Assembly (NCBI GenBank): GCA_963814955.1
Contig: CAWFEX010000004.1
Coordinates: 201,486 to 265,485 of the forward strand
Source: an uncultured Acidobacteriota bacterium
Lineage (GTDB): Bacteria > Acidobacteriota > Vicinamibacteria > Vicinamibacterales > UBA2999
Direction of reading: 5' to 3'
DNA: 64,000 nt
Shown here: positions 3,969 through 24,037 of the stretch, one piece after another
How positions within the stretch are numbered: the stretch's first letter is position 1
Layout: every line of letters begins with the position of its first letter
The notes under the pieces: generated by a model
The model's input: only the letters and a program-made list of their open reading frames with translations
What the model was told of the DNA's origin: nothing
Databases searched by the model: none
Made by a program: the position numbers and the translations under genes

Positions 3969-6900
3969 ATGTCATTCGCTCGTCGAACCCTTCAGGTCCT
4001 TGCCTTCATCTGCACGCTGCTGATCGGCGCGGCGGCGATGGCGATCGTCGTGGCACAGACCACGTGGTTCAAGGAATGGACGCGGACGTTCATCGTTCGC
4101 CAGGCGGCCCGCTACGTAAACGGCGATCTGTCGATCGGCCGACTTGATGGAAATCTGCTCTTCGGAGTGGAGCTCGAAAACATCGGCGTGACGATGGACG
4201 GCAAGACGGTGGTCGACATCAAAGACGTCGGTCTCGATTACAACGTTTTCACGCTTCTGTCCGGAGATGTCGTGCTGGACGACATCCGTCTGAATCAGCC
4301 GGTTTTCCATCTCGAAAAAGAAAATGGGGAATGGAACCTCGCGCATTTGATCAGGGCCAGGACTCCAGATCAGCCGCGCCGCCGCCGGCCGATCGAAATC
4401 GGTGAAATCGGCATCAGCGACGCCACCCTCTACGTTGAAGAACGAGATCGGCCGATCGGCACGTCCGGTGTAGCAGTGCCAACCCGCATCGGCAAGCTCG
4501 ATGCGTCGATTGGCATCAAGAGCGACGAAGATGCGCTGACGATCGACATCGCACATTTGTCTTTGCGCGCGGAAGCTCCCAACCTTGGCATCAACGCGCT
4601 CTCTGGTGTGATTATCCGGACGGCTGACGCCGTGACGTTCGAGAACGTGTCCCTGCGGACGGAAGAAAGCTCGCTCCGCGTGAACGGCGTTGTCAGGACG
4701 TCTGATGGCGGCAGACCGACGATCGACGTGGACGCATCATCCGACAAGCTCACGACGGAGGAGATCGGGCGGGTTATCCCGGCGCTGCGGGGCTACGGAC
4801 TGCAGCCCGCGTTCGAGATTTCGGCGCGCGGGCCTCTCGACCGTCTGTCAGTGCACGTCAACACGCGAGAAGCGGCGCTTGGCAACGTGACCGCCGAGCT
4901 GGAAGTCGACGCGGACGGTCCCGATCGCCGGGTTGCGGGAACAGTGTCGATGGCGAATTTCAACTTCGCGCCGTTGACACAGCGTCGGAACGGCCGTGCG
5001 AACACATTCGCCAGTAACGTCACAGGGGAAGCCCGCATCGATCTTGCGCTCCCGAAGGAGCGTGCGCCGCTTCGGGGCACGTACAGTTCTGAAAGCGGGA
5101 CGCGTACAGCGTGGCCGGCTACGATGCCCGAAATGTCGTCGCGCGCGGGCGCATCGATGGACGGACCATTCAGGTAGACGGAACGGCGAATGCGTACGGT
5201 GGCCGCGCATCCACCAAAGGTACTTTCGTCGCCGCGCTGCCGGTTTCATTGGATCTGACGGGCCGGGCCGAGAGCGTTGATCTGCGAAACCTGCCCCCGA
5301 ACCTCAGGATTCCGGAAGCGCCGAGCGACTTGCAGTTCAACTACACGCTTCACGCGCGGAACGGCGTGTACACAACAGACGCACAGTTCGACGCGTCAAC
5401 AGTCGCAGGGGCGTCGATCGCTCCCGGGACGACCGGTCAGCTCACGATCGGTGGCGGCGCTCCTTCCTATGCCGCACGTGGTGACGTCACGAATCTCGAT
5501 CTTCAGCAGATTGGCCAGGGATTCGCCGTACGGGTACTCACGGAAGAGCGTTTCCGCAGTCGCGTCAATGGGACGTTCGACGTGAAAGGGAGCGGCGGCG
5601 GCCGCTATCCTCTGGCAATCGATGCAACCGGCACTGCCGTGGACTCCGAGCTGTTCGGCACCACATTTCCACGCCTCGAATTTTCCACGCAGCTTGGAGG
5701 CGGTGACCTTCGCGCGCATACGACCGGAGAATTCTCCGGCCTCAATCCTGCCGTGGTGCTGGACCAGAAAAGGGTCGCCGGCGATCTCAGCGGCACGCTG
5801 GACGTCGATACCACCATTCGCGCCATCGCGTCAGGAATGACATTCGATTCCGTTGATGCTTCCGGACGTGTCGACCTGATGAATTCAACGATTGCCGAGC
5901 TGGCAATCGATCGGGCGTCCGTCGAAGGGACGTATGCGCAGCGCGAGGCGCAACTGACGGGTTTCGAGATTGCCGGCCCAGATCTGACGGCGAAAGGCCA
6001 GGGCGCCTTGGCGCTGAACGATACCGGCGCATCCAACTTGACAGCACATGTTGAGAGTCCTTCGCTCGAAAAAATCGGCACCATGATCGACCGACCGCTC
6101 AAGGGCGCGGTAATTATCGATGCAACGGTGACCGGCAACGCCGGCGAGCTCCGTGCTCAGGGGATGCTGCAGGGGAGCAACATCGCATACGGGGACACCA
6201 GCGCGCTGAGTCTGGCCAGCACGCTTGATGTGACCGTACCGGACCTTGCTGTCGGCGGCGCGTCGATCAAGGCAAAGAGCACCGCCACCTTCGTCGAAGT
6301 TGGCGGTCAGAGCATCCGCGAGTTAACGGCCGAAACCACGTACTCGAAATCGCAGCTGGAATTCGACGCGGTGGCACAGGAAGGTCCGCGGGAGCTGGCG
6401 GCGGCGGGCACGCTGACCCTGCATCCCGACCACCAGGAAGTGCACCTGGGGAACGTGGCGTTGCGGGCCGAACAGATCGAATGGCGCACCGTTCCCGGGA
6501 CGGCTGCGGCGGTGCGATACGGTGGCGATCGGGTGGAGATCGAGAATCTTCAACTCGCAAGCGGCGACCAGCGGATCGAGGCCGATGGCGTTGTCGGGTC
6601 GTCGACCGAGGTGCTCCGGGTGCGCGCGCAGAATGTCGATGTGTCTCAGCTCGATCAGCTGATGCTCGGCAACCGGCAAATCAGCGGACAACTGAATGCC
6701 AATGCCTCGATATCGGGCCCTCTCGATGCCCCGCGTGCCGAGGGCGAGTTTACGCTCGCGCCGGGCGCCTTCCGTCAATTCACGTTCGATTCGCTGGCAG
6801 GCAAGGTGGACTACGTTCGCCAGGGCGTGAATCTGGACGTCCGGCTGCAGCAGTCGCCGCAGGAGTGGGTGACGGCGACAGGCTATGCGCCGTTGTCGCT

Positions 6901-8347
6901 GTTCCGGCCCAACCTCGCGGGCGTCGAAGGGCACGAAACACCGGGAGCGGGCGAGGGAATCGAGCTCCAAGTCTCGAGCAGCCAGATCGATCTCGGTGTC
7001 ATCCAGGGGTTCACGTCATATGTCACCGACGTGACCGGGGCCCTGCAGGCGAACGTCAAGGTGACTGGAACGGGCCACGACCCCCACTTCGACGGTATCG
7101 TGGACATTCGCGGGGGCGCCTTTTCCGTGCCCGATCTCGGGACGGCCTACACGGGACTCGATACCCGCGTCGAACTGACCACCGACGCAGTCTCCATCAG
7201 CGAGATGAAACTCGTCGACGAGCATAAACAGGTGATGACCATCGGCGGCATGCTGGGCGTGCACGAACGCACGGTCGGTGCCGTCGACGTCAAGATCCAA
7301 TCAGAAAATTTCGAGGTGGTCGACAACGAGCTTGCCGATCTGAAGCTCGACACCGATATACGCGTCACCGGTGAGCTTCGTGCCCCGCGCATCGAGGGGT
7401 TCGTCGAAGTCGAGACAGGCAGCATCGACGCAGCCAGAGTGCTCGAACAGGCGACCGCAAACCCGTACGATACCGAGGTTGCGGACCTGAATACGGGCCA
7501 GCCTGAGCCCGAGCGCGCGGCTTCGACACCACCGGAGCCGTCGATTTTCGACCGCATCGATCTGGAAGTGGGCGTCGCCGTTCCAGGCAGCCTGTCGATA
7601 CGGGGCACAGACCTGCGCCCGGCGAACGCCCCGATTGATATCGGTGACCTGAACGTCACGGTCGGCGGCGTCTTGCAGGTTCGGAAGCCCCGTGGCGCGC
7701 GGCCTCAGCTGATCGGTGAGGTCAACACGATTCGCGGGAACTACTCGTTCCAGGGCCGCCGATTCGAAATCATGCGCGACGGGCGGATCAGATTTGGCGG
7801 AACCGACGAGATCGATCCACTCGTAGACCTGCGCGCGCGACGAGTCATCTCCGGCGTCGAGACGTTCGTTCGCGTAACGGGATCGATGAGGCAACCGGAG
7901 CTGACGTTCACGAGTCAGCCGCCACTCGATCAGGCGGACATCCTCTCGCTCATCGTCTTCAATGTGCCGATCAACGAGCTTGGCGAGGGGCAGCAGATCT
8001 CGCTTGCCGAGCGCGCGGGGGCACTGGCAGGGGGATACCTCGTGTCCGGTCTGACGGAGTCACTGGCCTCTGCACTCGAGCTGGACGAGCTGGAGTTCCA
8101 GACACAGGGCGAACAGGGGTTTGGACCTAGTCTGAGCATTGGAGAACAGGTAGGGGAGAAGCTCTTTGTCCGGATCAGGCAGGGCTTCGGCGCCGCGGAA
8201 GCAACGGAATTCATTCTGGAATACCAGGTTGCCGAATACCTGCGCCTGCAGGGCTCCGCCGCCGAGACATCGAGCGGCACGCAGCGCGTGACGTTCCGGC
8301 GCGTGGAGCGCGGTGGCCTCGATTTGATCTTTTTCTTCAGTTATTGA
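3969..8347 (+). CDS. tamB: TamB-like translocation/assembly module protein (DUF490 C-terminus); frame broken near 5093-5110
   Basis: ORF pieces 3969..5177 and 5111..8347 lie in different frames. The N-terminal TM anchor is LQVLAFICTLLIGAAAMAIVVAQ. The C-terminus (SLSIGEQVGEKLFVRIRQGFG...ILEYQVAEYLRLQG...DLIFFFSY) is typical of TamB. The tail of piece 1 after ...LRGTYSSE reads as junk. Confidence 0.8.
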
Positions 8348-16180: not shown

Positions 16181-16412
16181 GTCGGACGTGACACGAAAGA
16201 CGCTGGCGTGCGGTTGTCAGGTGGATGCCGCGCGCGACTTCCTCGGACGCGTGGTCGGCACGGTCGTCACCAAGGGTCCGACGTGTTCGCAGACCGTTGC
16301 ACGTTCCGGGGCATGTCATTGTGATGCCCGGACGCGAACACGCACGAGAGGAATAGTCACCCGGACTTCGCTGCGGCGGGGCGGCGCGCCTGCGCCACCG
16401 CGTGCACGATGA
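16179..16412 (+). CDS. candidate small Cys-rich protein (end uncertain)
   Basis: ATG at 16179, back-to-back with the ispG start. The product is [49 protein letters not shown]... with high third-position GC over about 50 codons. The Arg-rich tail overlaps the sortase 3' end and may be out of frame. Confidence 0.25.
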   Translation: MSDVTRKTLACGCQVDAARDFLGRVVGTVVTKGPTCSQTVARSGACHCDARTRTRTRGIVTRTSLRRGGAPAPPRAR

Positions 16413-17052
16413 ACCGCTTCGGTGCCGACCCGATGTAGGTGAACGGATAGCACGTCACCAGCGTGAGGGTAGACTTTCGCGTGGGTTTGAGTACCCACGT
16501 GTCCTTCGGTGACACCACACTCGTGGTGTCCACTTTGAACACGAATGTTCCCGCTGTCGTGACGACGCGGATGTCGTCTGCGGCGCGGATATCGCGCAGC
16601 CGTCGGAAGAACGTGTCACGATGCCCGGCCAGTCCGATGTTGCCAATCTCGCCTGGAAGGGCCGTGCCAGGGATATGACCGACTGCCAGCCGAAGCGTGC
16701 GAGCGTCACTGCCGGCGCGAATGATGGCCGAGACACCGAGCCTGGGGATTTCGATTCGGCCGAGAGCGGAACCCGGAGATGGCCGGACCGGCTTGATCGC
16801 GGCTGTCGTCGCGGCCGGCGGAGTCGCGGCCGGCGGAACGCTCGCGAGTATCAAATCGAGCTCGCGGTTTTCGATCGCCTGATACAACCTGGCTTCCACG
16901 GACACATACGCGAAGTAGCCAAGGCAGATCAGTCCGACGACAATGAGGATGCGCTCCAGCCATTTCAGACGGCGCGTTTTATTTGACCGCCGCCGGGAGC
17001 GTTGCGGCTCGTCGTTATCTGGAACCCGGGTGATGATGCGTCCTATAGCCAT
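16357..17052 (-). CDS. sortase-family transpeptidase
   Basis: N-terminal TM helix ILIVVGLICLGYFAYV. The catalytic region is LAGHRDTFFRRLRDI...TLTLVTCYPF (TLxTC motif), with a conserved Arg downstream (KRFIVHAV). The start is 17052 or 17091. Confidence 0.8.
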   Translation of the reverse strand: MAIGRIITRVPDNDEPQRSRRRSNKTRRLKWLERILIVVGLICLGYFAYVSVEARLYQAIENRELDLILASVPPAATPPAATTAAIKPVRPSPGSALGRIEIPRLGVSAIIRAGSDARTLRLAVGHIPGTALPGEIGNIGLAGHRDTFFRRLRDIRAADDIRVVTTAGTFVFKVDTTSVVSPKDTWVLKPTRKSTLTLVTCYPFTYIGSAPKRFIVHAVAQARRPAAAKSG

Positions 17053-17938
17053 CGCGACTCCGAACGCGCAAGTTCTTTTGGCCGGGAACACGCACGCCTA
17101 CTTTCACACGACGATACGTTCCATCGTGTGCGGTGTTGGTTGGAATGTACCCAATCAGGTAGCCGCGACGGATATTTGCCGCAATCCGGTCGAAGCTTTC
17201 GACAACCTCATCGTCTCCGTCTGGAAAGTACGCGACTCCGCCCGCGACATTGGCCAGCTTGCGGAGTACTCCCGCGTCGCCAGGGAGCCCGTACCGGCGG
17301 TTTGCCGTGGAAACTGTGTACACGATGGCGTTGCTGTCGCGCGCGTGGGCGATCATCTCCTCTTCCGTGTGCGTGCTCGCGTTGTCCTCGCCATCCGAAA
17401 GCACGACGAGAACCCGTTTCTGATGAGTCGCGAACTCGAGGTGATCGAGCCCCGCCATCACCGCATCGTACAGGGCGGTCTTGCCGCCCGGTCCGAAGCG
17501 CGCCAGCGCCGAGCTCAATAGTATTTGACGGTTCGTGAACGGCATGCCTGCCGGTAGTCCGAATTGGGCGCGCTCGTTGAAATGAATCGTGAACAGCTCG
17601 TCTTCGGTATGGCTGGATCGCGCAAACGCCTTGCTGCCTGCAATGACCATGTGTTGGCGCGCGATCATCGAGCTGCTGTTGTCGAGAATGAGACCAACCG
17701 TCACGGGCACATCAGCGCCGCTGAAAAACGTAATCTCCTGCCCTTCGTCGTTTTCCAGCACGGTGAACGCACTTTGCGGCAGATCCGGAACGGCATCAGA
17801 TCGGCCGTCGAACACATTTACGTGGAGGACCACCAGATCAGACTCGGATCTGAAGACCTGCAGCGGCTCCTGCACGGCAATGAGCGGTGCGCAGAACATC
17901 GCCCACAGCAGAAGATCACGCGCCAGATGCCGCACCAT
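17015..17938 (-). CDS. secreted VWA-domain protein (acidobacterial VWFA-related type)
   Basis: Signal-like start MVRHLARDLLLWAMFCAPLIAVQ at 17938. FRSESDLVVLHVNVFDGRSDAVPDLPQSAFTVLENDEGQEITFF matches my recollection of the VWFA-related acidobacterial domain. A MIDAS-like ILDNSSSM motif is present. Confidence 0.75.
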   Translation of the reverse strand: MVRHLARDLLLWAMFCAPLIAVQEPLQVFRSESDLVVLHVNVFDGRSDAVPDLPQSAFTVLENDEGQEITFFSGADVPVTVGLILDNSSSMIARQHMVIAGSKAFARSSHTEDELFTIHFNERAQFGLPAGMPFTNRQILLSSALARFGPGGKTALYDAVMAGLDHLEFATHQKRVLVVLSDGEDNASTHTEEEMIAHARDSNAIVYTVSTANRRYGLPGDAGVLRKLANVAGGVAYFPDGDDEVVESFDRIAANIRRGYLIGYIPTNTAHDGTYRRVKVGVRVPGQKNLRVRSRDGYRTHHHPGSR

Positions 17939-18025
17939 AATCTTGTTCTTGCCGTTCGCTGATTCGTTATCGACCGAGCGGTGATTGGCGGCAGCGCCGC
18001 CAATCACCAAACCTCCGTTCAGACT

Positions 18026-18832
18026 TTATATCCGGAATGCTCGGATGCCGGCAGCTCCGAGGAGCGACAGCAATCCCAACAAGCCGGAAAGCGCAACCGG
18101 ACTTGCGGTTGCCGGGAGCTCTCTTGTGTTCTGTGCATCCGTGCTCTGCGCGGTCGTTGACGCCTGCCCTGACGTGCCAACCGGGCGTTCGGCTGCCGGT
18201 GGCGGCGACACGGTGCGGGGTTCCGGCGCCGGCGCCGCCTGCGTCTCGGCTCGCGCCTCTACTGCTGGTTCGGCGGGAGGAGGCCCGCTGCCTTCGACGA
18301 CCCCAATGCTGCTATCGGCAGCAGTGGACGCCGGCTCCTGCGGTGCTTCGGGTGTCGAGGCTGCAGAAGCCTGCGCGTCGGCACTCACACGACCCTCTTC
18401 GGTCAAAACACCTTCGCCGGTGCGCCCGGCAATTTGCAGCGCCTGGTTCTTCGGATAGATAAACTCCTTACCGATCCTCTCGCCAGGGTAATACCAGAAC
18501 TGAACCGCCGGCGTTGTTTTCGCGTCGGTCTCACGGAACGTCACGACGGTGTCGCCCGTGGCCTCAAGACGTTCTGCGGGTACGAAGAGCCACTGCCCGA
18601 GCACCTTCATCTCGTCTTCCGACAGCACCTGGATGACATTGCGGGACGCCGTGTCCGCGATGCGGAACACGTAGGTGCCCGGTTCGAGCTTCATGCCGGG
18701 GAGCTCGACCGCGGCGCTGAATGTCATGATCGTGCGATCGCGGGTGTCGGGCTGCTGCGCGGCGACGTTGAACGTCAGAACCCCCAGCAACACGACCATC
18801 ACCGCGGTTGCGATTACAGTCAAACGTTTCAT
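18026..18832 (-). CDS. secreted protein with C-terminal LPATAS sorting-signal-like tail
   Basis: ATG at 18832 is preceded by GAGGAGG. Signal peptide MKRLTVIATAVMVVLLGVLTFNVAAQ. The C-terminal half is low-complexity and Pro/Ala/Thr-rich. The protein ends ELPATAS-PVALSGLLGLLSLLGAAG-IRAFRI. Confidence 0.75.
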   Translation of the reverse strand: MKRLTVIATAVMVVLLGVLTFNVAAQQPDTRDRTIMTFSAAVELPGMKLEPGTYVFRIADTASRNVIQVLSEDEMKVLGQWLFVPAERLEATGDTVVTFRETDAKTTPAVQFWYYPGERIGKEFIYPKNQALQIAGRTGEGVLTEEGRVSADAQASAASTPEAPQEPASTAADSSIGVVEGSGPPPAEPAVEARAETQAAPAPEPRTVSPPPAAERPVGTSGQASTTAQSTDAQNTRELPATASPVALSGLLGLLSLLGAAGIRAFRI

Positions 18833-19071
18833 TCCTCTGTCCTCCTCGTTGACGCGCAACGCTCTCGCGCGATGCGCCTCATTCGCGCCCACCAGGCGCA
18901 GGCATCGGCTAGGCCATATCTGTGAACGGTGGTGCATCTTGTATGCCCTCCGGAGCGCGGCGGTATCGAAGCGCAGGGCCGAGCGCGGCCATATGCATTT
19001 GGACGAGGCACACGGAGTGGTTGAAGATCGGTCGAGCTGAGAAAAGACCAACTGTCGACAACCATCGATCC

Positions 19072-20292
19072 GTGACCAACATTGATCCACGTTCGCACGA
19101 CAAATGGCCGCTGTGGCTGGCCATGGCGCTGGCGCTCATCTGGGTGCCGTCTCTCGACCGTGGTTTCTGTGAAGACGACTTTCTATTGGTCCCGATAACG
19201 TTCTCGACGTTTCTCGAGAACCCGCTGTGGGGTGCTGGAACACCTCCTCCGGTGCGTGAAGGGCTTCCGGCGTACCGAGGCGAAGGTCGACCGGTATCGT
19301 CTCTGACATACGCGTTGCTGCCTGCTCAGGCTCATGTGCAACATGTGGTCAGCCTGCTGCTCTACCTCGCGTGCCTGTGGCTGATGTGGCGCGTGTGCTC
19401 GCGGCTCGCGCTCGCGCCGCGGCCGACCTTGTTTGCGCTCTCGTCGTTCTTTCACCCTGCGTTTCTCTGGAATGTGACCTGGATCGCCCACAGGTACGAC
19501 CTGTTGGTAATCGCGCTGCTTCTGCTCGCCGTGCTCGAGACGCGGGTGCCAATCAAAGTCGCGTTGATCGGACTGGGGAGCGGTGCAAAGCCGCCGCTGT
19601 TCTTTCAGAACTTCGTTTTTGCGTATCAATTCGCCCGGCAGGGACGAATCGTTGCGGGCGCGGTCACGCTGTTCTGGCTGGCTGTGTTTGCGGTCGGCAT
19701 TTATCTGACGCGGTACACAGAGGAATCGGCGGTCGCCGACTCTTTGTACACGCTCCCCGTCGTCATTTCGATTCCGCTGAGGATCGTGAAGCTGTTCGAG
19801 GGCTTGCTATACATCTTTGCGCCGATCCCGATGTTCGCCGTCACCGCCTGGATGCCGTTCGTTGCTCTGGCCGCGTATGGGGCATTGTGGGTCGCGGTGC
19901 TTCGTTCGCCGATGACATCGGTGAGAGAGAGCATCCGCCGGCATGGATGGATTCCCGCGATGGCCGCGGCAATGAGCGTCCCTTTCCTGTTTGCGTCGGA
20001 CGTGCGCATCACCGGCGCGGCGGCAGTCATGACGTTTCTCTGGCTGGCTACAGTGGTGCGATGTGATGGCGTTCGAATGACGGCGATCGTGGCGATTCTC
20101 GTGCTGAACCTCACCGGTATCTTTCTGAACTATGGTGCGTTCCGGTCCGCGCAGTACGACATTCGCGCGGACATGGCGGGGTGCAACTTCTACTCGCAAC
20201 CCGTGTACGCCTTCGCGGGGTCAAGAGAGGAGCTGCGCAGGAACATCCTCACAGTGCTCGGGATTCGCACTGAGTTCAGGAAGTTTCCCTGA
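19072..20292 (+). CDS. polytopic membrane protein, possibly a GT-C-like glycosyltransferase
   Basis: ORF 18922..20292 with about 10 or more hydrophobic helices. An early loop, SLDRGFCEDDFLL, resembles the acidic first loop of PMT/ArnT-type enzymes. The start is uncertain (GTG 19072 or ATG 19123). Confidence 0.5.
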   Translation: MTNIDPRSHDKWPLWLAMALALIWVPSLDRGFCEDDFLLVPITFSTFLENPLWGAGTPPPVREGLPAYRGEGRPVSSLTYALLPAQAHVQHVVSLLLYLACLWLMWRVCSRLALAPRPTLFALSSFFHPAFLWNVTWIAHRYDLLVIALLLLAVLETRVPIKVALIGLGSGAKPPLFFQNFVFAYQFARQGRIVAGAVTLFWLAVFAVGIYLTRYTEESAVADSLYTLPVVISIPLRIVKLFEGLLYIFAPIPMFAVTAWMPFVALAAYGALWVAVLRSPMTSVRESIRRHGWIPAMAAAMSVPFLFASDVRITGAAAVMTFLWLATVVRCDGVRMTAIVAILVLNLTGIFLNYGAFRSAQYDIRADMAGCNFYSQPVYAFAGSREELRRNILTVLGIRTEFRKFP

Positions 20293-21028: not shown

Positions 21029-21752
21029 GTGGCAATCACCGTCACCGTGAAGGGCGCGATCCCGCAGCGACGGCCGCTCTACATCGCGTTGAGCGCGCTC
21101 ATGGCGCTGATCGTTGCTGTGGGGTTCTGGCCGACGTATTACGGGCCGCTTGTTCGCCTGACGCTCGCACAACCGCCGCTCATCCACGTTCACGCGATCG
21201 TGTTCACTGGATGGCTGGCGCTGTTCTCGGCGCAAGCGGTGTTCGCGGCGAATGGCCGACTCCGATGGCATCTGCGACTCGGCCGTATCGGCATCGCCTA
21301 TGGCGTGCTACTCGTCATCGTGGGACTGACAACGGGAGTCTTGCGATCAGCAGCGCTGCCGCGTGGAGGGCAGGCCGAAGAGCTGCTGTATGTTGCCTTC
21401 GTCGACATGCTGGTGTTCGCGAGCTTCTTCGGTGCGGCCATCCGGTTCCGGCGGCGACCCGACGTGCACAAGAAACTAATGACCGTCGCCGCGACCACGC
21501 TGCTGGTGGCCGCGGTGGGCCGGAATCCGTATCTGCCGGCACTCCCGCGGTCTTGCAGCCATGTTTCTCGTTTGGTCGTCGCCGGTGCTGCTGGCTGCCG
21601 TGTACGACTGGCGACACAATCGCGGTGTGCATCCGGTGTATGTCGCCGGTCTTGTGGCGTTTGCATTTCGCATGTGGAGCGAGCCGCTCGCGCTGACGTC
21701 CACGTGGAGCGCGTTCGCAACGTTCGTGTTTCGCAGTGCGTCGTCGCTGTAG
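21029..21752 (+). CDS. integral membrane protein, hypothetical; frame broken near 21544-21551
   Basis: ORF 21029..21916 reads sensibly for about 170 aa (six hydrophobic helices, HVHAIVFTGWLALFSAQAVF) and then turns Arg-rich. The sensible C-terminus MFLVWSSPVLLAAVYDWRHNRGVHPVYVAGLVAFAF... is ORF 21561..21752. Confidence 0.6.
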
Positions 21753-22429
21753 TGGGCCCGCGGATCCCGCTGATCGACCCCGTCCATCAAGCCGTGTTGC
21801 GCACACAAGGGCAAGCCAAACTGCTGCAGCCATGGCCGCATGTTGCGGCCAGGCCGCGCGGGCCAGCTGGGGCGTCCCGAGGGGACCTGGTCGACGATTC
21901 CGGTCGCCAATCCTGAGGGACGATTGTTTCCCTCCGGCGCGGATCCGACCAGCGCCATTCGACTCGGGTGCCGCGAATGCGCAAATGCAGGCTCGCTCAT
22001 GGCGAGCCATAGACACGCCCGACAGTCGTCAGTCACGTCCCGACTCGCCGTTAGTTCGTCGGGAACGGGAACGAGTCCTGCCGGGCGCGCCATTCCAACG
22101 TTTTGGGCGCGCCACCCCGCTCCGCTTTGGTATCTGTTCGTTTTCGGATGGATGAAAACCGTCGGCTTGTTGCGCAAACTCCGCCACCGCGGGAAGCGCG
22201 GGGAGCTCCCTCTGGTCGCGTACCTGCCCCCGTGCAGTTGTCGAACCCCGGCAGGAACCATGCGAGCGCCGGATAACCGGCCTGCCAGGCGAGCTAGAGT
22301 GCGATAAGGTCGCGGACGCCGCGAGACAGACGCGACGGATGGTGAACGAGGGGGTGTTCACCGTAGCGGCCGGCGAGAATCACACGGCCGCCAACCGGAT
22401 GTCAAACGGATTACCATTCATCCAACCGC

Positions 22430-24037
22430 ATGGCTCAAGCCGTCCACAGCAGGGGCGCCATCTCCGTCACGGCGGAATTCCTTAGCACTCTTCGAGGCTT
22501 CCTTCGAACCCCGATCGGGCCGGACGAGTGTCGCGACCGGCTTCGAGCGGGGCTCGCCCAACGCGAAGCCGCCGTGCTTCGGTTGTTTCGCGAGCTGATG
22601 ATCGCCGAGTCACCCATGCCGTACCGGAGGCTCTTCGACCATGCCGGCCTCACGATGGGCGACCTCGACGCACTCGTGCGCGCCGAGGGCGCGTGCGGCG
22701 CGCTCGTGCGCATACACGAGGCCGGCGTGTTCGTGACCCTCGACGAGTTCAAGGGGCGGCGTCCCATTCAGCGGGGTTCGCTCAGTCTGGCCGTCGAGGC
22801 GAGTGATTTCGACAACCGCACGGTGGTGTCCGGTTTCCTCGCCCGAACGGGCGGCTCGCGGAGCGCCGGCACGCCTCTCCTGATCGATCTAGACCTGGTA
22901 GCCCACGAAGCGTGCTACGAGTGGATGGCGGCCGCTGCGTTCGAGCGCGTAGGGGCGCTCCGTGCGCTCTGGCGGCCCGTCCCGCCAGGGACGGCTGGCC
23001 TCAAGCACGCGCTTCGCTTTGCCAAGATCGGCCAGCCGGTGGAGCGGTGGTTCTCGCAGCATCCCGTGTGGGCCGGCCGCGAGTGGCGACACTCCCTGTT
23101 CACGGCGGGAACGATGCTCGCAAGCCGCATCGCAGGCCGAGGTTTGGCGTGGCCCGAGCATGTGCCCGCGTCCGAAGCCACGACGATCGCTCGATGGATG
23201 GCCCAGCAGAAGGCGAGAGGGCGCCCGCCCGTCCTCCACACCAACGCAGCATCGGGCGTTCGCGTGTGCCAGGCCAGCCGCGCGGCAGGCCTGGACATCA
23301 GCGGATCGTTCTTCGGCGTGGGCGGAGAACCCTACACCGAGGCCAAGGCCGCCGCGATTGCCGACGCGGGCTGCCTGGCGGCCTCCATCTACTCGATGTC
23401 CGAAGTGGGCCGGATCGCGACACCTTGCGCGGATCCGGCGGCGCCAGACGACGCGCATGTGGCGATCGACAAGGTGGTGCTCGTGTCACGCGATACCCGC
23501 GTGGGAGGCGCGGCAACCCCCGTTCCCGCACTGTTCCTCACGGCGCTCCATCCGTCGACGCCGAAGGTCATGCTCAACGTTGAATTGGGTGACTATGCCA
23601 CGGTGACGAACCGGGTGTGCCGGTGCCCGTGGAGCGCGCTCGGATTCACGGTCCATGTGAGCGGGATCCGAAGTTATGAGAAGCTGACGGCCGAAGGCAT
23701 GCACTTCATCGGCGCCCATCTGTTGACGCTCATCGAACACACCCTGCCCGCGACGTTCGGCGGCAGCGCGGTCGACTATCAACTCGTCGAGGACGAACGC
23801 GCGGGCGTGCCGTTCGTGTCGCTCGTCGTGAGTCCCGGGATTGGCGATCTCGACGAGTCGCGACTGCGCGAGCACGTGTTGGCCGAGCTCGGGCGCGACG
23901 AGGCAGCTCTGCGGATGATGGCGGGCCGTTGGCGCGACGCGGGGACGCTCCGGGTCGAGCGGCGCGACCCGTTCCTGACCCCGGCTGGGAAGGTGCTGGC
24001 TCTGCATGTACAACAACGGGGGCGCCGCGATGCGTAA
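22430..24037 (+). CDS. PaaK/coenzyme-F390-synthetase-like adenylate-forming enzyme (divergent)
   Basis: The layout resembles phenylacetate-CoA ligase-type ANL enzymes. SPMPYRRLFDHAGLTMGDLDAL matches the N-terminal region. TGGSRSAGTP sits where the SSGTTGxP loop is expected. IYSMSEVG, ELGDYATV, CRCPW...VSGIRSYEKLTAEGMHF and a distal TPAGKVL are also present. Confidence 0.5.
   Translation: MAQAVHSRGAISVTAEFLSTLRGFLRTPIGPDECRDRLRAGLAQREAAVLRLFRELMIAESPMPYRRLFDHAGLTMGDLDALVRAEGACGALVRIHEAGVFVTLDEFKGRRPIQRGSLSLAVEASDFDNRTVVSGFLARTGGSRSAGTPLLIDLDLVAHEACYEWMAAAAFERVGALRALWRPVPPGTAGLKHALRFAKIGQPVERWFSQHPVWAGREWRHSLFTAGTMLASRIAGRGLAWPEHVPASEATTIARWMAQQKARGRPPVLHTNAASGVRVCQASRAAGLDISGSFFGVGGEPYTEAKAAAIADAGCLAASIYSMSEVGRIATPCADPAAPDDAHVAIDKVVLVSRDTRVGGAATPVPALFLTALHPSTPKVMLNVELGDYATVTNRVCRCPWSALGFTVHVSGIRSYEKLTAEGMHFIGAHLLTLIEHTLPATFGGSAVDYQLVEDERAGVPFVSLVVSPGIGDLDESRLREHVLAELGRDEAALRMMAGRWRDAGTLRVERRDPFLTPAGKVLALHVQQRGRRDA

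Follow-up and report, generated by a model that had tools for sequence, protein, structure and literature searches.

The minus strand of a 64,000-nucleotide stretch of DNA from an uncultured soil bacterium of the Acidobacteriota, order Vicinamibacterales (GenBank assembly GCA_963814955.1, contig CAWFEX010000004.1; the whole stretch is called the window hereafter) carries at positions 16357-18832 an operon of three tightly packed open reading frames (ORFs). They encode, in order, a secreted protein with a C-terminal LPxTASP sorting signal (SUB), a secreted von Willebrand factor type A (VWA) protein and a sortase. From sequence comparisons, this cassette appears to be a true sortase/substrate pair in a diderm bacterium, and we propose that it belongs to a sorting system of diderm Acidobacteriota in which a class-D-like enzyme serves several substrates with the LPxTASP signal, and the commonest form of which includes the VWA partner. 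The host is a diderm: the window also contains an AsmA/DUF748 gene (3969-5177, plus strand) and a TamB gene (5111-8347, plus strand), both markers of outer-membrane biogenesis, and related loci encode TonB-dependent receptors and Omp85. An earlier reading of the window from its letters alone (the sequence-only reading) had described the three ORFs, and this description was accurate in every detail checked. The operon is laid out as follows.

18026-18832, minus strand: SUB, the predicted sortase substrate gene, 268 residues (signal peptide, head, linker and LPATAS signal), from its ORF and ribosome-binding site
18758-18832, minus strand: Sec signal peptide of SUB, residues 1-25, MKR followed by a hydrophobic stretch, predicted cleavage VAA|QQ, read from the sequence
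18383-18757, minus strand: head domain of SUB, residues 26-150 (about 125 residues), beta-rich with one helix, from an AlphaFold2 model
18122-18382, minus strand: variable Ala/Pro/Ser/Thr/Glu-rich linker of SUB, residues 151-237 (about 87 residues), including a conserved VGTSG motif, from composition and alignment
18101-18118, minus strand: sorting motif LPATAS, predicted scissile bond Thr242-Ala243, from homologue and tail alignments
18029-18100, minus strand: Pro completing LPxTASP, then hydrophobic helix and basic tail (PVALSGLLGLLSLLGAAG-IRAFRI), from sequence and alignments
17980-18008, minus strand: stem-loop between SUB and the VWA gene, perfect 13-bp stem with a GCU loop, from folding
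17015-17938, minus strand: secreted VWA protein of the acidobacterial TIGR03436 type, 307 residues, from NCBIfam and Pfam matches
17669-17683, minus strand: DxSxS of the metal ion-dependent adhesion site (MIDAS; D86, S88, S90), with T154 at 17477-17479 and D182 at 17393-17395
16357-17052, minus strand: class-D-like sortase, 231 residues, from Pfam Sortase (E = 1.8e-31), NCBIfam and PDB matches
16897-16962, minus strand: membrane anchor of the sortase, residues 31-52, preceded by an Arg/Lys-rich cytoplasmic segment, read from the sequence
16414-16623, minus strand: catalytic His144 (16621-16623), Cys201 (16450-16452) and Arg213 (16414-16416), from the 2ln7 alignment

The SUB ATG is preceded by a GGAGGA Shine-Dalgarno sequence 6-9 nt upstream, the VWA start lies 87 nt past the SUB stop, and the sortase start overlaps the VWA stop by 38 nt. 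This overlap recurs in orthologous loci, and translation of the VWA and sortase genes is coupled.

We then asked to which class the sortase belongs. The protein matches Pfam PF04203 (peptidase C60) at 108.9 bits against a gathering threshold of 26.6, and TIGR01076 at 72.4 bits against a cut-off of 39.35. Among the class models, the class D model NF058671 ('class D sortase, LPxTATN-specific') is passed by 4 bits (144.1 versus 140), and the scores of the others are 129 bits against 165 for the class D model NF033746, 105 against 160 for class E, 93.4 against 158.25 for the class GN or 'marine' model TIGR03784, and 62.7 against 160 for class C. The two class D models also rank first and second for each of eight other acidobacterial sortases, taken from related loci, with scores below both cut-offs (126.6-138.0 bits for NF058671 and 113-129 for NF033746), and TIGR03784 gives 72-92 bits. 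The closest solved structures are both class D enzymes, from Clostridium perfringens (4d70, E = 8e-18) and Bacillus anthracis (2ln7, E = 6.5e-16). His144, Cys201 and Arg213 can be assigned as the catalytic triad because they align with the GHRD, TLxTCYPF and APxR motifs of 2ln7 and with the corresponding residues of 4d70; the active-site motif of the window sortase reads TLVTC. Since the best profile and structure matches are to class D and the triad is aligned, we consider the protein a bona fide class-D-like sortase. The sequence-only reading had described a membrane-anchored sortase with a TLxTC active site, and had named lack of the catalytic His/Cys/Arg as a refutation; the Pfam match and the intact triad bear the description out. 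Judged on its model scores, the family appears to lie outside every curated class, and clearly outside the proteobacterial class GN. Automatic annotation could name the window sortase 'LPxTATN-specific', at odds with its LPxTASP substrates; the sources annotate it as 'sortase A'.

Class D sortases act on LPxTA substrates, attach them to meso-diaminopimelic acid (m-DAP) and are often encoded beside their substrates (PMC8225981; PMC3617157); B. anthracis SrtC is an enzyme known to attach its substrate to the m-DAP cross-bridge (PMC8225981). Class D sortases are also those that take Ala after Thr (PMC8225981; PMC3617157), so that in the acidobacterial system the motif matches the type of enzyme. 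The likeness to the Bacillota enzymes (B. anthracis SrtC/SrtD, 2LN7; C. perfringens SrtD, 4D70; Bacillus subtilis YhcS) covers the best profile and structure matches, the GHRD, TLxTCYPF and APxR motifs, the N-terminal anchor, the Ala after Thr and the frequent placement of the enzyme beside its substrate. The differences are of several kinds. The Bacillota hosts are spore-forming monoderms whereas the host here is a diderm acidobacterium; their motif is LPxTA[ST]N-like rather than LPxTASP; a VWA gene is inserted here between substrate and enzyme; and the acidobacterial enzymes stay below the NF033746 cut-off (113-129 versus 165), the window copy alone barely passing NF058671.

The other comparison to be made is with the proteobacterial marine system, in which a dedicated sortase is encoded beside a VWA/VIT protein with an LPXTG tail (PMC3237569). 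Both systems place a sortase in an outer-membrane bearer, encode it beside its substrate and have a VWA domain in the cassette (PMC3237569). However, the sortases described here score 72-93 bits against the class GN cut-off of 158; the class GN target is one protein with both VIT/VWA and sorting signal, whereas in the acidobacterial cassette a TIGR03436 protein of its own, without tail, carries the VWA domain; and class GN has one dedicated target, whereas the LPxTASP tail is found on several protein families. The sequence-only reading had suggested a split variant of the marine system. This idea has to be abandoned, given a sortase that reaches 93 bits of the 158 required by TIGR03784 and scores best on class D, and a VWA protein of the TIGR03436 type. 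TIGR03784, which that reading had named as a model of the Gram-negative system, is indeed the Gram-negative sortase model in the NCBIfam output. TIGR03788, the other accession that it had tentatively given, was absent from all outputs; the marine target model gave no match to the VWA protein at E<=1.

The second line of evidence is the C-terminus of SUB, where ELPATAS is followed by PVALSGLLGLLSLLGAAG (18 hydrophobic residues after the motif) and by IRAFRI. Among the 120 homologues listed, LPxT[AS]S stands at a fixed distance of 32 residues from the C-terminus in 119, with LPATAS in 73 of them, LPATSS in 12, LPSTAS in 12 and LPRTAS in 10. In the alignment of the 32-residue tail, L, P, T, S, P, two G and one R are invariant, and 131 of 150 representative tails read LPxTASP. 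Such conservation is far beyond chance. At E<=10 the tail gave sub-threshold matches only, to TIGR04383 ('processed acidic surface protein'), which carries LPXTA; the LPXTG anchor model TIGR01167 reached 13.6 bits against a cut-off of 15.9 for a relative, and Pfam Gram_pos_anchor matched 6/16 relatives below threshold. A '[PA]VGT[ST]G' motif occupies SUB residues ~217-223 (window ~18164-18184), and a VGTSG-like motif was found 15-40 residues upstream of LPxTASP in 89/150 tail-bearing proteins, across unrelated head families. As it is common to these families, the conserved C-terminal module may exceed the classical signal, and the motif could be a recognition or modification site. Neither the tail nor the substrate head families are modelled in Pfam or NCBIfam.

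A tail of this architecture calls for comparison with the PEP-CTERM/exosortase and other CTERM systems, with which it shares the tripartite C-terminal signal, substrate genes both adjacent and dispersed, and the use of the signal as a 'suffix' present on some members of a family and absent from others (PMC3237569). These systems differ in having a polytopic exosortase and another motif, whereas the enzyme here is a cysteine transpeptidase and the tail matches none of their models. Indeed, no PEP-CTERM match at E<=10 was obtained with the 60-residue SUB tail or with three other tail-bearing proteins, and there is no PEP motif. The helix region of the tail gave weak sub-threshold matches to GPS-CTERM, IPTL-CTERM and PFE-CTERM, and a scan of 13 ORFs of the window, three from the operon and ten adjacent to it, showed no exosortase. 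On these comparisons the tail is not of the PEP-CTERM type, a case that the sequence-only reading had named as one that would overturn its proposal.

SUB itself consists of a conserved head on a variable stalk. In the homologue alignment the mature N-terminus, QQPDT, shows little or no variation, the head is highly conserved, and the linker (21 A, 14 P, 11 S and 9 T in the window copy) is hypervariable in length and sequence. SUB homologues form more than 1025 clusters. No Pfam or NCBIfam family was assigned to SUB, a tail-bearing protein without VWA domain, which the sources annotate as 'hypothetical protein'. An AlphaFold2 run on full-length SUB with 24 close homologues was unusable (predicted local distance difference test, pLDDT, 54) and was replaced by a run on the head only with 29 diverse sequences aligned, giving a pLDDT of 86.5, a predicted template modelling score of 0.76 and about nine strands with one helix. 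This model retrieved nothing at E<=1e-3 from the PDB and BFVD with Foldseek (best PDB hit E = 0.47, TM-score <= 0.25), and a sequence profile of the head gave noise alone against PDB sequences (best E = 0.16). A weak recurrent DUF2911 signal was seen with Pfam in 22/32 head members (best E = 5e-4), and SH3_5 likewise appeared as a weak Pfam hint only. The head contains a YPK(N/D) string that resembles a pilin motif. A pilin-like lysine, in this YPKN string or at the neighbouring K122, was considered and rejected, since K122 is replaced by Y, A, Q, R, L or N, and YPK by YPR or YPH, trio members included. Stand-alone secreted paralogs of the head, 145-148 residues long, are encoded at L025:6001-6438, L026:6001-6447 and L027:6001-6444. 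Because these paralogs exist without linker, tail, VWA or sortase neighbour, the SUB head can be regarded as an independent domain family.

We next looked at how far the tail extends beyond SUB. A 32-position tail profile was searched against 1.84 billion representative proteins and retrieved 247 proteins at E<=0.001; every match listed lies at or within a few residues of the C-terminus, in a protein of at most 341 residues. Of the 57 full-length representatives, 30 carry the SUB head, 20 an unrelated head (family 2) and 7 other heads. The family 2 head is recognised by the signature GCxQRESDYR...AYELTG...GGFDPLG with two conserved Cys; the family comprises 197 clusters, and its named members are Vicinamibacterales and 'Acidobacteria bacterium' metagenome-assembled genomes (MAGs). 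A scan of metagenomes for [ER]LP[RQK]TASPLP returned 80 loci, of which 47 have a SUB-type (family 1) head, 12 a family 2 head, 11 a family 3 head and 8 another head. Family 3 is made of tandem repeats of about 60 residues (pattern G..LVV..dG...vP...vdGk...dLKPGM). In five loci (L045, L054, L056, L107 and L114) a full-length sortase gene belonging to the same subtype directly precedes the family-3 gene, with no VWA gene, and a locus with another head (L073) has the same layout, with the sortase directly upstream and no VWA gene. Among the 19 family-1 metagenome loci whose downstream sequence reaches 2 kb or more, 10 have VWA and sortase genes, 1 a sortase gene only and 8 neither. A SUB-type gene accompanied by a sortase gene without VWA gene was seen in L086 and L094, and on the Joint Genome Institute contig of P0391 a gene for a 322-residue VWA protein follows a family-2 LPxTASP gene at a distance of about 3.5 kb and is itself followed by a gene cut by the contig end.

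From the family-1 trio and the family-3 layout it follows that at least two operon layouts, independent of each other, link the tail with a sortase of this type. As the same tail is borne by at least three unrelated head families, both paired and dispersed, we propose a small multi-substrate pathway rather than a one-to-one pair. The suggestion that the LPATAS protein might be the sole kind of substrate does not stand, the LPxTASP tail being present on at least three head families. From the shared taxonomy and the near-identical tails we infer that different tail families co-occur in one genome.

The genetic association was also followed in a scan of one genome per GTDB species, which gave 23 loci. 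The label is Acidobacteriota for 22 of them, with several assigned to Vicinamibacterales. The remaining locus, L018, is a contig of 2.3 kb that had been binned as Bifidobacteriaceae and is probably a misbinned fragment. The complete SUB-VWA-sortase order is present in 17 of the 23 loci, down to 35% SUB identity, so that the synteny survey called for by the sequence-only reading gave the trio as a conserved unit. Two loci end at the contig edge after the VWA gene. One, L007, has SUB and the VWA gene followed by an Omp85/BamA-like gene (L007:6837-9877) where the sortase is expected; its sortase may be either elsewhere in the genome or lost. The remaining three are L025-L027, in which the stand-alone head is alone. 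Sortase or SUB reading frames are in 2-3 pieces in the long-read MAGs L006, L008/L001, L012, L022 and L024, and these are probably assembly frameshifts rather than pseudogenes. In this set of loci, tail and sortase thus come and go together, as one would expect if the one is the sorting signal and the other its enzyme.

These data bear directly on whether another sorting enzyme (an exosortase, a rhombosortase or another CTERM-type enzyme) might read the tail while the adjacent sortase acts elsewhere. The generic tripartite CTERM architecture, the weak GPS-, IPTL- and PFE-CTERM matches in the helix region and the fact that the family-2 genes examined never adjoin a sortase would fit such a scenario. 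We nevertheless hold it to be highly improbable: the motif is LPxTA, not PEP or GG, with no PEP-CTERM match at E<=10, the tail goes with this type of sortase in two unconnected gene arrangements, and the tail-less paralogs go without a sortase, no alternative enzyme being conserved nearby.

The third component of the operon is the VWA protein, which matches TIGR03436 at 171.7 bits against a cut-off of 81.25, over profile positions 2-323 of 324; the Pfam VWA scores are marginal. The sequence-only reading had called it a secreted, acidobacterial VWFA-related protein without sorting signal, and the TIGR03436 score together with the signal peptide agrees with this. Signal peptides were found in nearly all of 17 orthologues, and each of the MIDAS residues D86, S88, S90, T154 and D182 shows one exception at most in 18 orthologues. 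By its sequence the protein is exported, without a sorting tail or an anchor. Attachment as a lipoprotein was considered and rejected, as the Cys is not conserved and the orthologues have no conserved lipobox. The window protein is a full-length TIGR03436 member, and its orthologue group is tied to the sortase operon; we know of no function for the TIGR03436 family as a whole. No lysine is invariant among the 18 orthologues. The lysine and MIDAS data would favour a soluble, metal-dependent binding partner. The earlier proposal of the VWA protein as a partner or acceptor thus divides in two: a non-covalent partner is plausible, and a covalent acceptor is unsupported for want of an invariant lysine.

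The same evidence applies to protein-protein ligation in the manner of class C sortases, in which Thr242 would be joined to an amine on the VWA protein or on a second SUB molecule to give a covalent heterodimer or a pilus-like fibre. The position of the VWA gene between substrate and sortase genes, its translational coupling to the latter and the pilin-like YPK(N/D) string in the SUB head speak for ligation, and Gram-positive pilus tip adhesins contain VWA domains. However, an invariant lysine is lacking in the SUB head, where K122 and the YPK string vary even among trio members, as it is in the 18 VWA orthologues; the string is also present in the tail-less stand-alone paralogs; the class C model gives 62.7 bits against a cut-off of 160; and the sortase-linked family-3 substrates have no VWA neighbour. 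We therefore consider ligation unlikely. A version in which an N-terminal alpha-amine is the acceptor would be untouched by the lysine argument.

Taking these components together, the reading that we favour, with moderate confidence, is that of a class-D-like sortase encoded with one of its substrates and a VWA partner, and transferring the substrate to periplasmic peptidoglycan; this is based on sequence features and on analogy with class D. After Sec export, the C-terminal helix would hold SUB in the inner membrane. Cys201 would then attack the Thr242-Ala243 bond to form an acyl-enzyme, which would be resolved by an amine. On the model of class D sortases, this amine is most likely that of the stem peptide (m-DAP) in lipid II or peptidoglycan. 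As a result, a flexible stalk of some 87 residues would hold the head to the periplasmic sacculus, and the VWA product would probably bind the tethered head or another ligand non-covalently via its metal site. The same sortase type would also serve the other LPxTASP-tailed families. The destination, drawn by analogy, is the weakest step of this mechanism.

Several points weigh against this reading. The precedent for a peptidoglycan acceptor is that of class D sortases in monoderms. With its 87 or so residues the stalk is long for a protein of the periplasm, and there is no evident way for it through the outer membrane. The SUB head has no match to a known fold or function. The role of the VWA protein is conjectural, and other sortase/substrate pairs of the same type work without it. 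No sortase is encoded near the family-2 genes in five contexts (several-kb flank) and twelve metagenome loci, a sixth context being a 2.4-kb contig too short to judge neighbours, and none lies nearby in 8/19 family-1 metagenome loci and in L007. Finally, no locus had two tail-bearing genes, and the family-2 records (NCBI, ENA) come from MAGs other than the trio loci.

The length of the stalk leads to another destination, a non-peptidoglycan envelope acceptor (a lipid, a lipopolysaccharide (LPS) or capsule component, or an outer-membrane protein), which would place the head at or beyond the outer membrane. A long flexible stalk with a single small head does resemble surface-display proteins, and Gram-negative sortase systems have been described as not well characterised (PMC8225981). 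On the other hand, no outer-membrane translocation component is conserved beside the operon, where the adjoining genes are ispG and a PQQ (pyrroloquinoline quinone) dehydrogenase. We know of no sortase that uses acceptors of these kinds, and we regard this destination as improbable. The sortase might also act as a processing enzyme only, hydrolysing LPATAS to free a soluble periplasmic SUB, the tail being a transient membrane tether. Sortases slowly hydrolyse their substrates when no nucleophile is present, and no acceptor is identified by the sequence. However, signal peptidase alone would free a soluble protein, so that a 32-residue tail and a dedicated transpeptidase would be a costly means to this end, and the strict conservation of TASP past the cleavage site suggests specific recognition. 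For these reasons processing alone seems very unlikely to us.

Returning to attachment to peptidoglycan, we can only speculate about its purpose. LPxTASP proteins and the MIDAS-bearing VWA protein could tether the outer membrane to the peptidoglycan or build a scaffold spanning the periplasm, or the proteins could be displayed beyond the outer membrane by some other route; this is a tentative idea to which we give a rather low probability. If the tether reading were true, the system would be a functional analogue of Braun's lipoprotein, assembled by a transpeptidase of Gram-positive type.

Sortases are textbook Gram-positive enzymes. To our knowledge, next to nothing has been established about their role in outer-membrane bacteria, and a single Gram-negative system has been curated, the proteobacterial type with one target. 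The acidobacterial cassette would thus represent a second, unrelated diderm sortase system, with its own conserved LPxTASP signal on several small, stalked 'hypothetical' proteins. Sequence clusters of its sortases and substrates number in the thousands; the system is abundant in Acidobacteriota of soil and groundwater, and it provides a defined pair of peptide and enzyme for asking where sortase substrates go in a diderm envelope. In our literature searches no description of an acidobacterial sortase system was found; the only trace was a COG count, which gives Solibacter usitatus six sortase genes (PMC3174227). The reviews give only proteobacterial cases of one sortase and one substrate, which are called uncharacterised (PMC8225981).

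As to expression of the operon, the 100-nt SUB-VWA stretch containing the stem-loop has a minimum free energy of -35.7 kcal/mol (z = -3.0). Stems are predicted at the same position in 14 of 15 orthologous spacers (L005-L023); they are mostly long and their sequences are unrelated. The fifteenth spacer (L016), of only 14 nt, was left unfolded. None of these stems has a U-tract beside it. The stem-loop is probably a partial terminator or a stabiliser of the mRNA 3' end, and it probably makes SUB mRNA exceed that of the VWA and sortase genes. A scan of the operon for sigma-70 promoter and terminator consensus sequences gave nothing useful.

Upstream of the operon lie three sizeable plus-strand ORFs (18922-20292, 21029-21916 and 22430-24037). 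They have no Pfam or NCBIfam match and are not conserved beside the trio in relatives. The first (456 residues as listed) is divergent from the operon, and its product has a polytopic, hydrophobic look. The highest GC content of the window (0.676) is found in the stretch at 22-24 kb.

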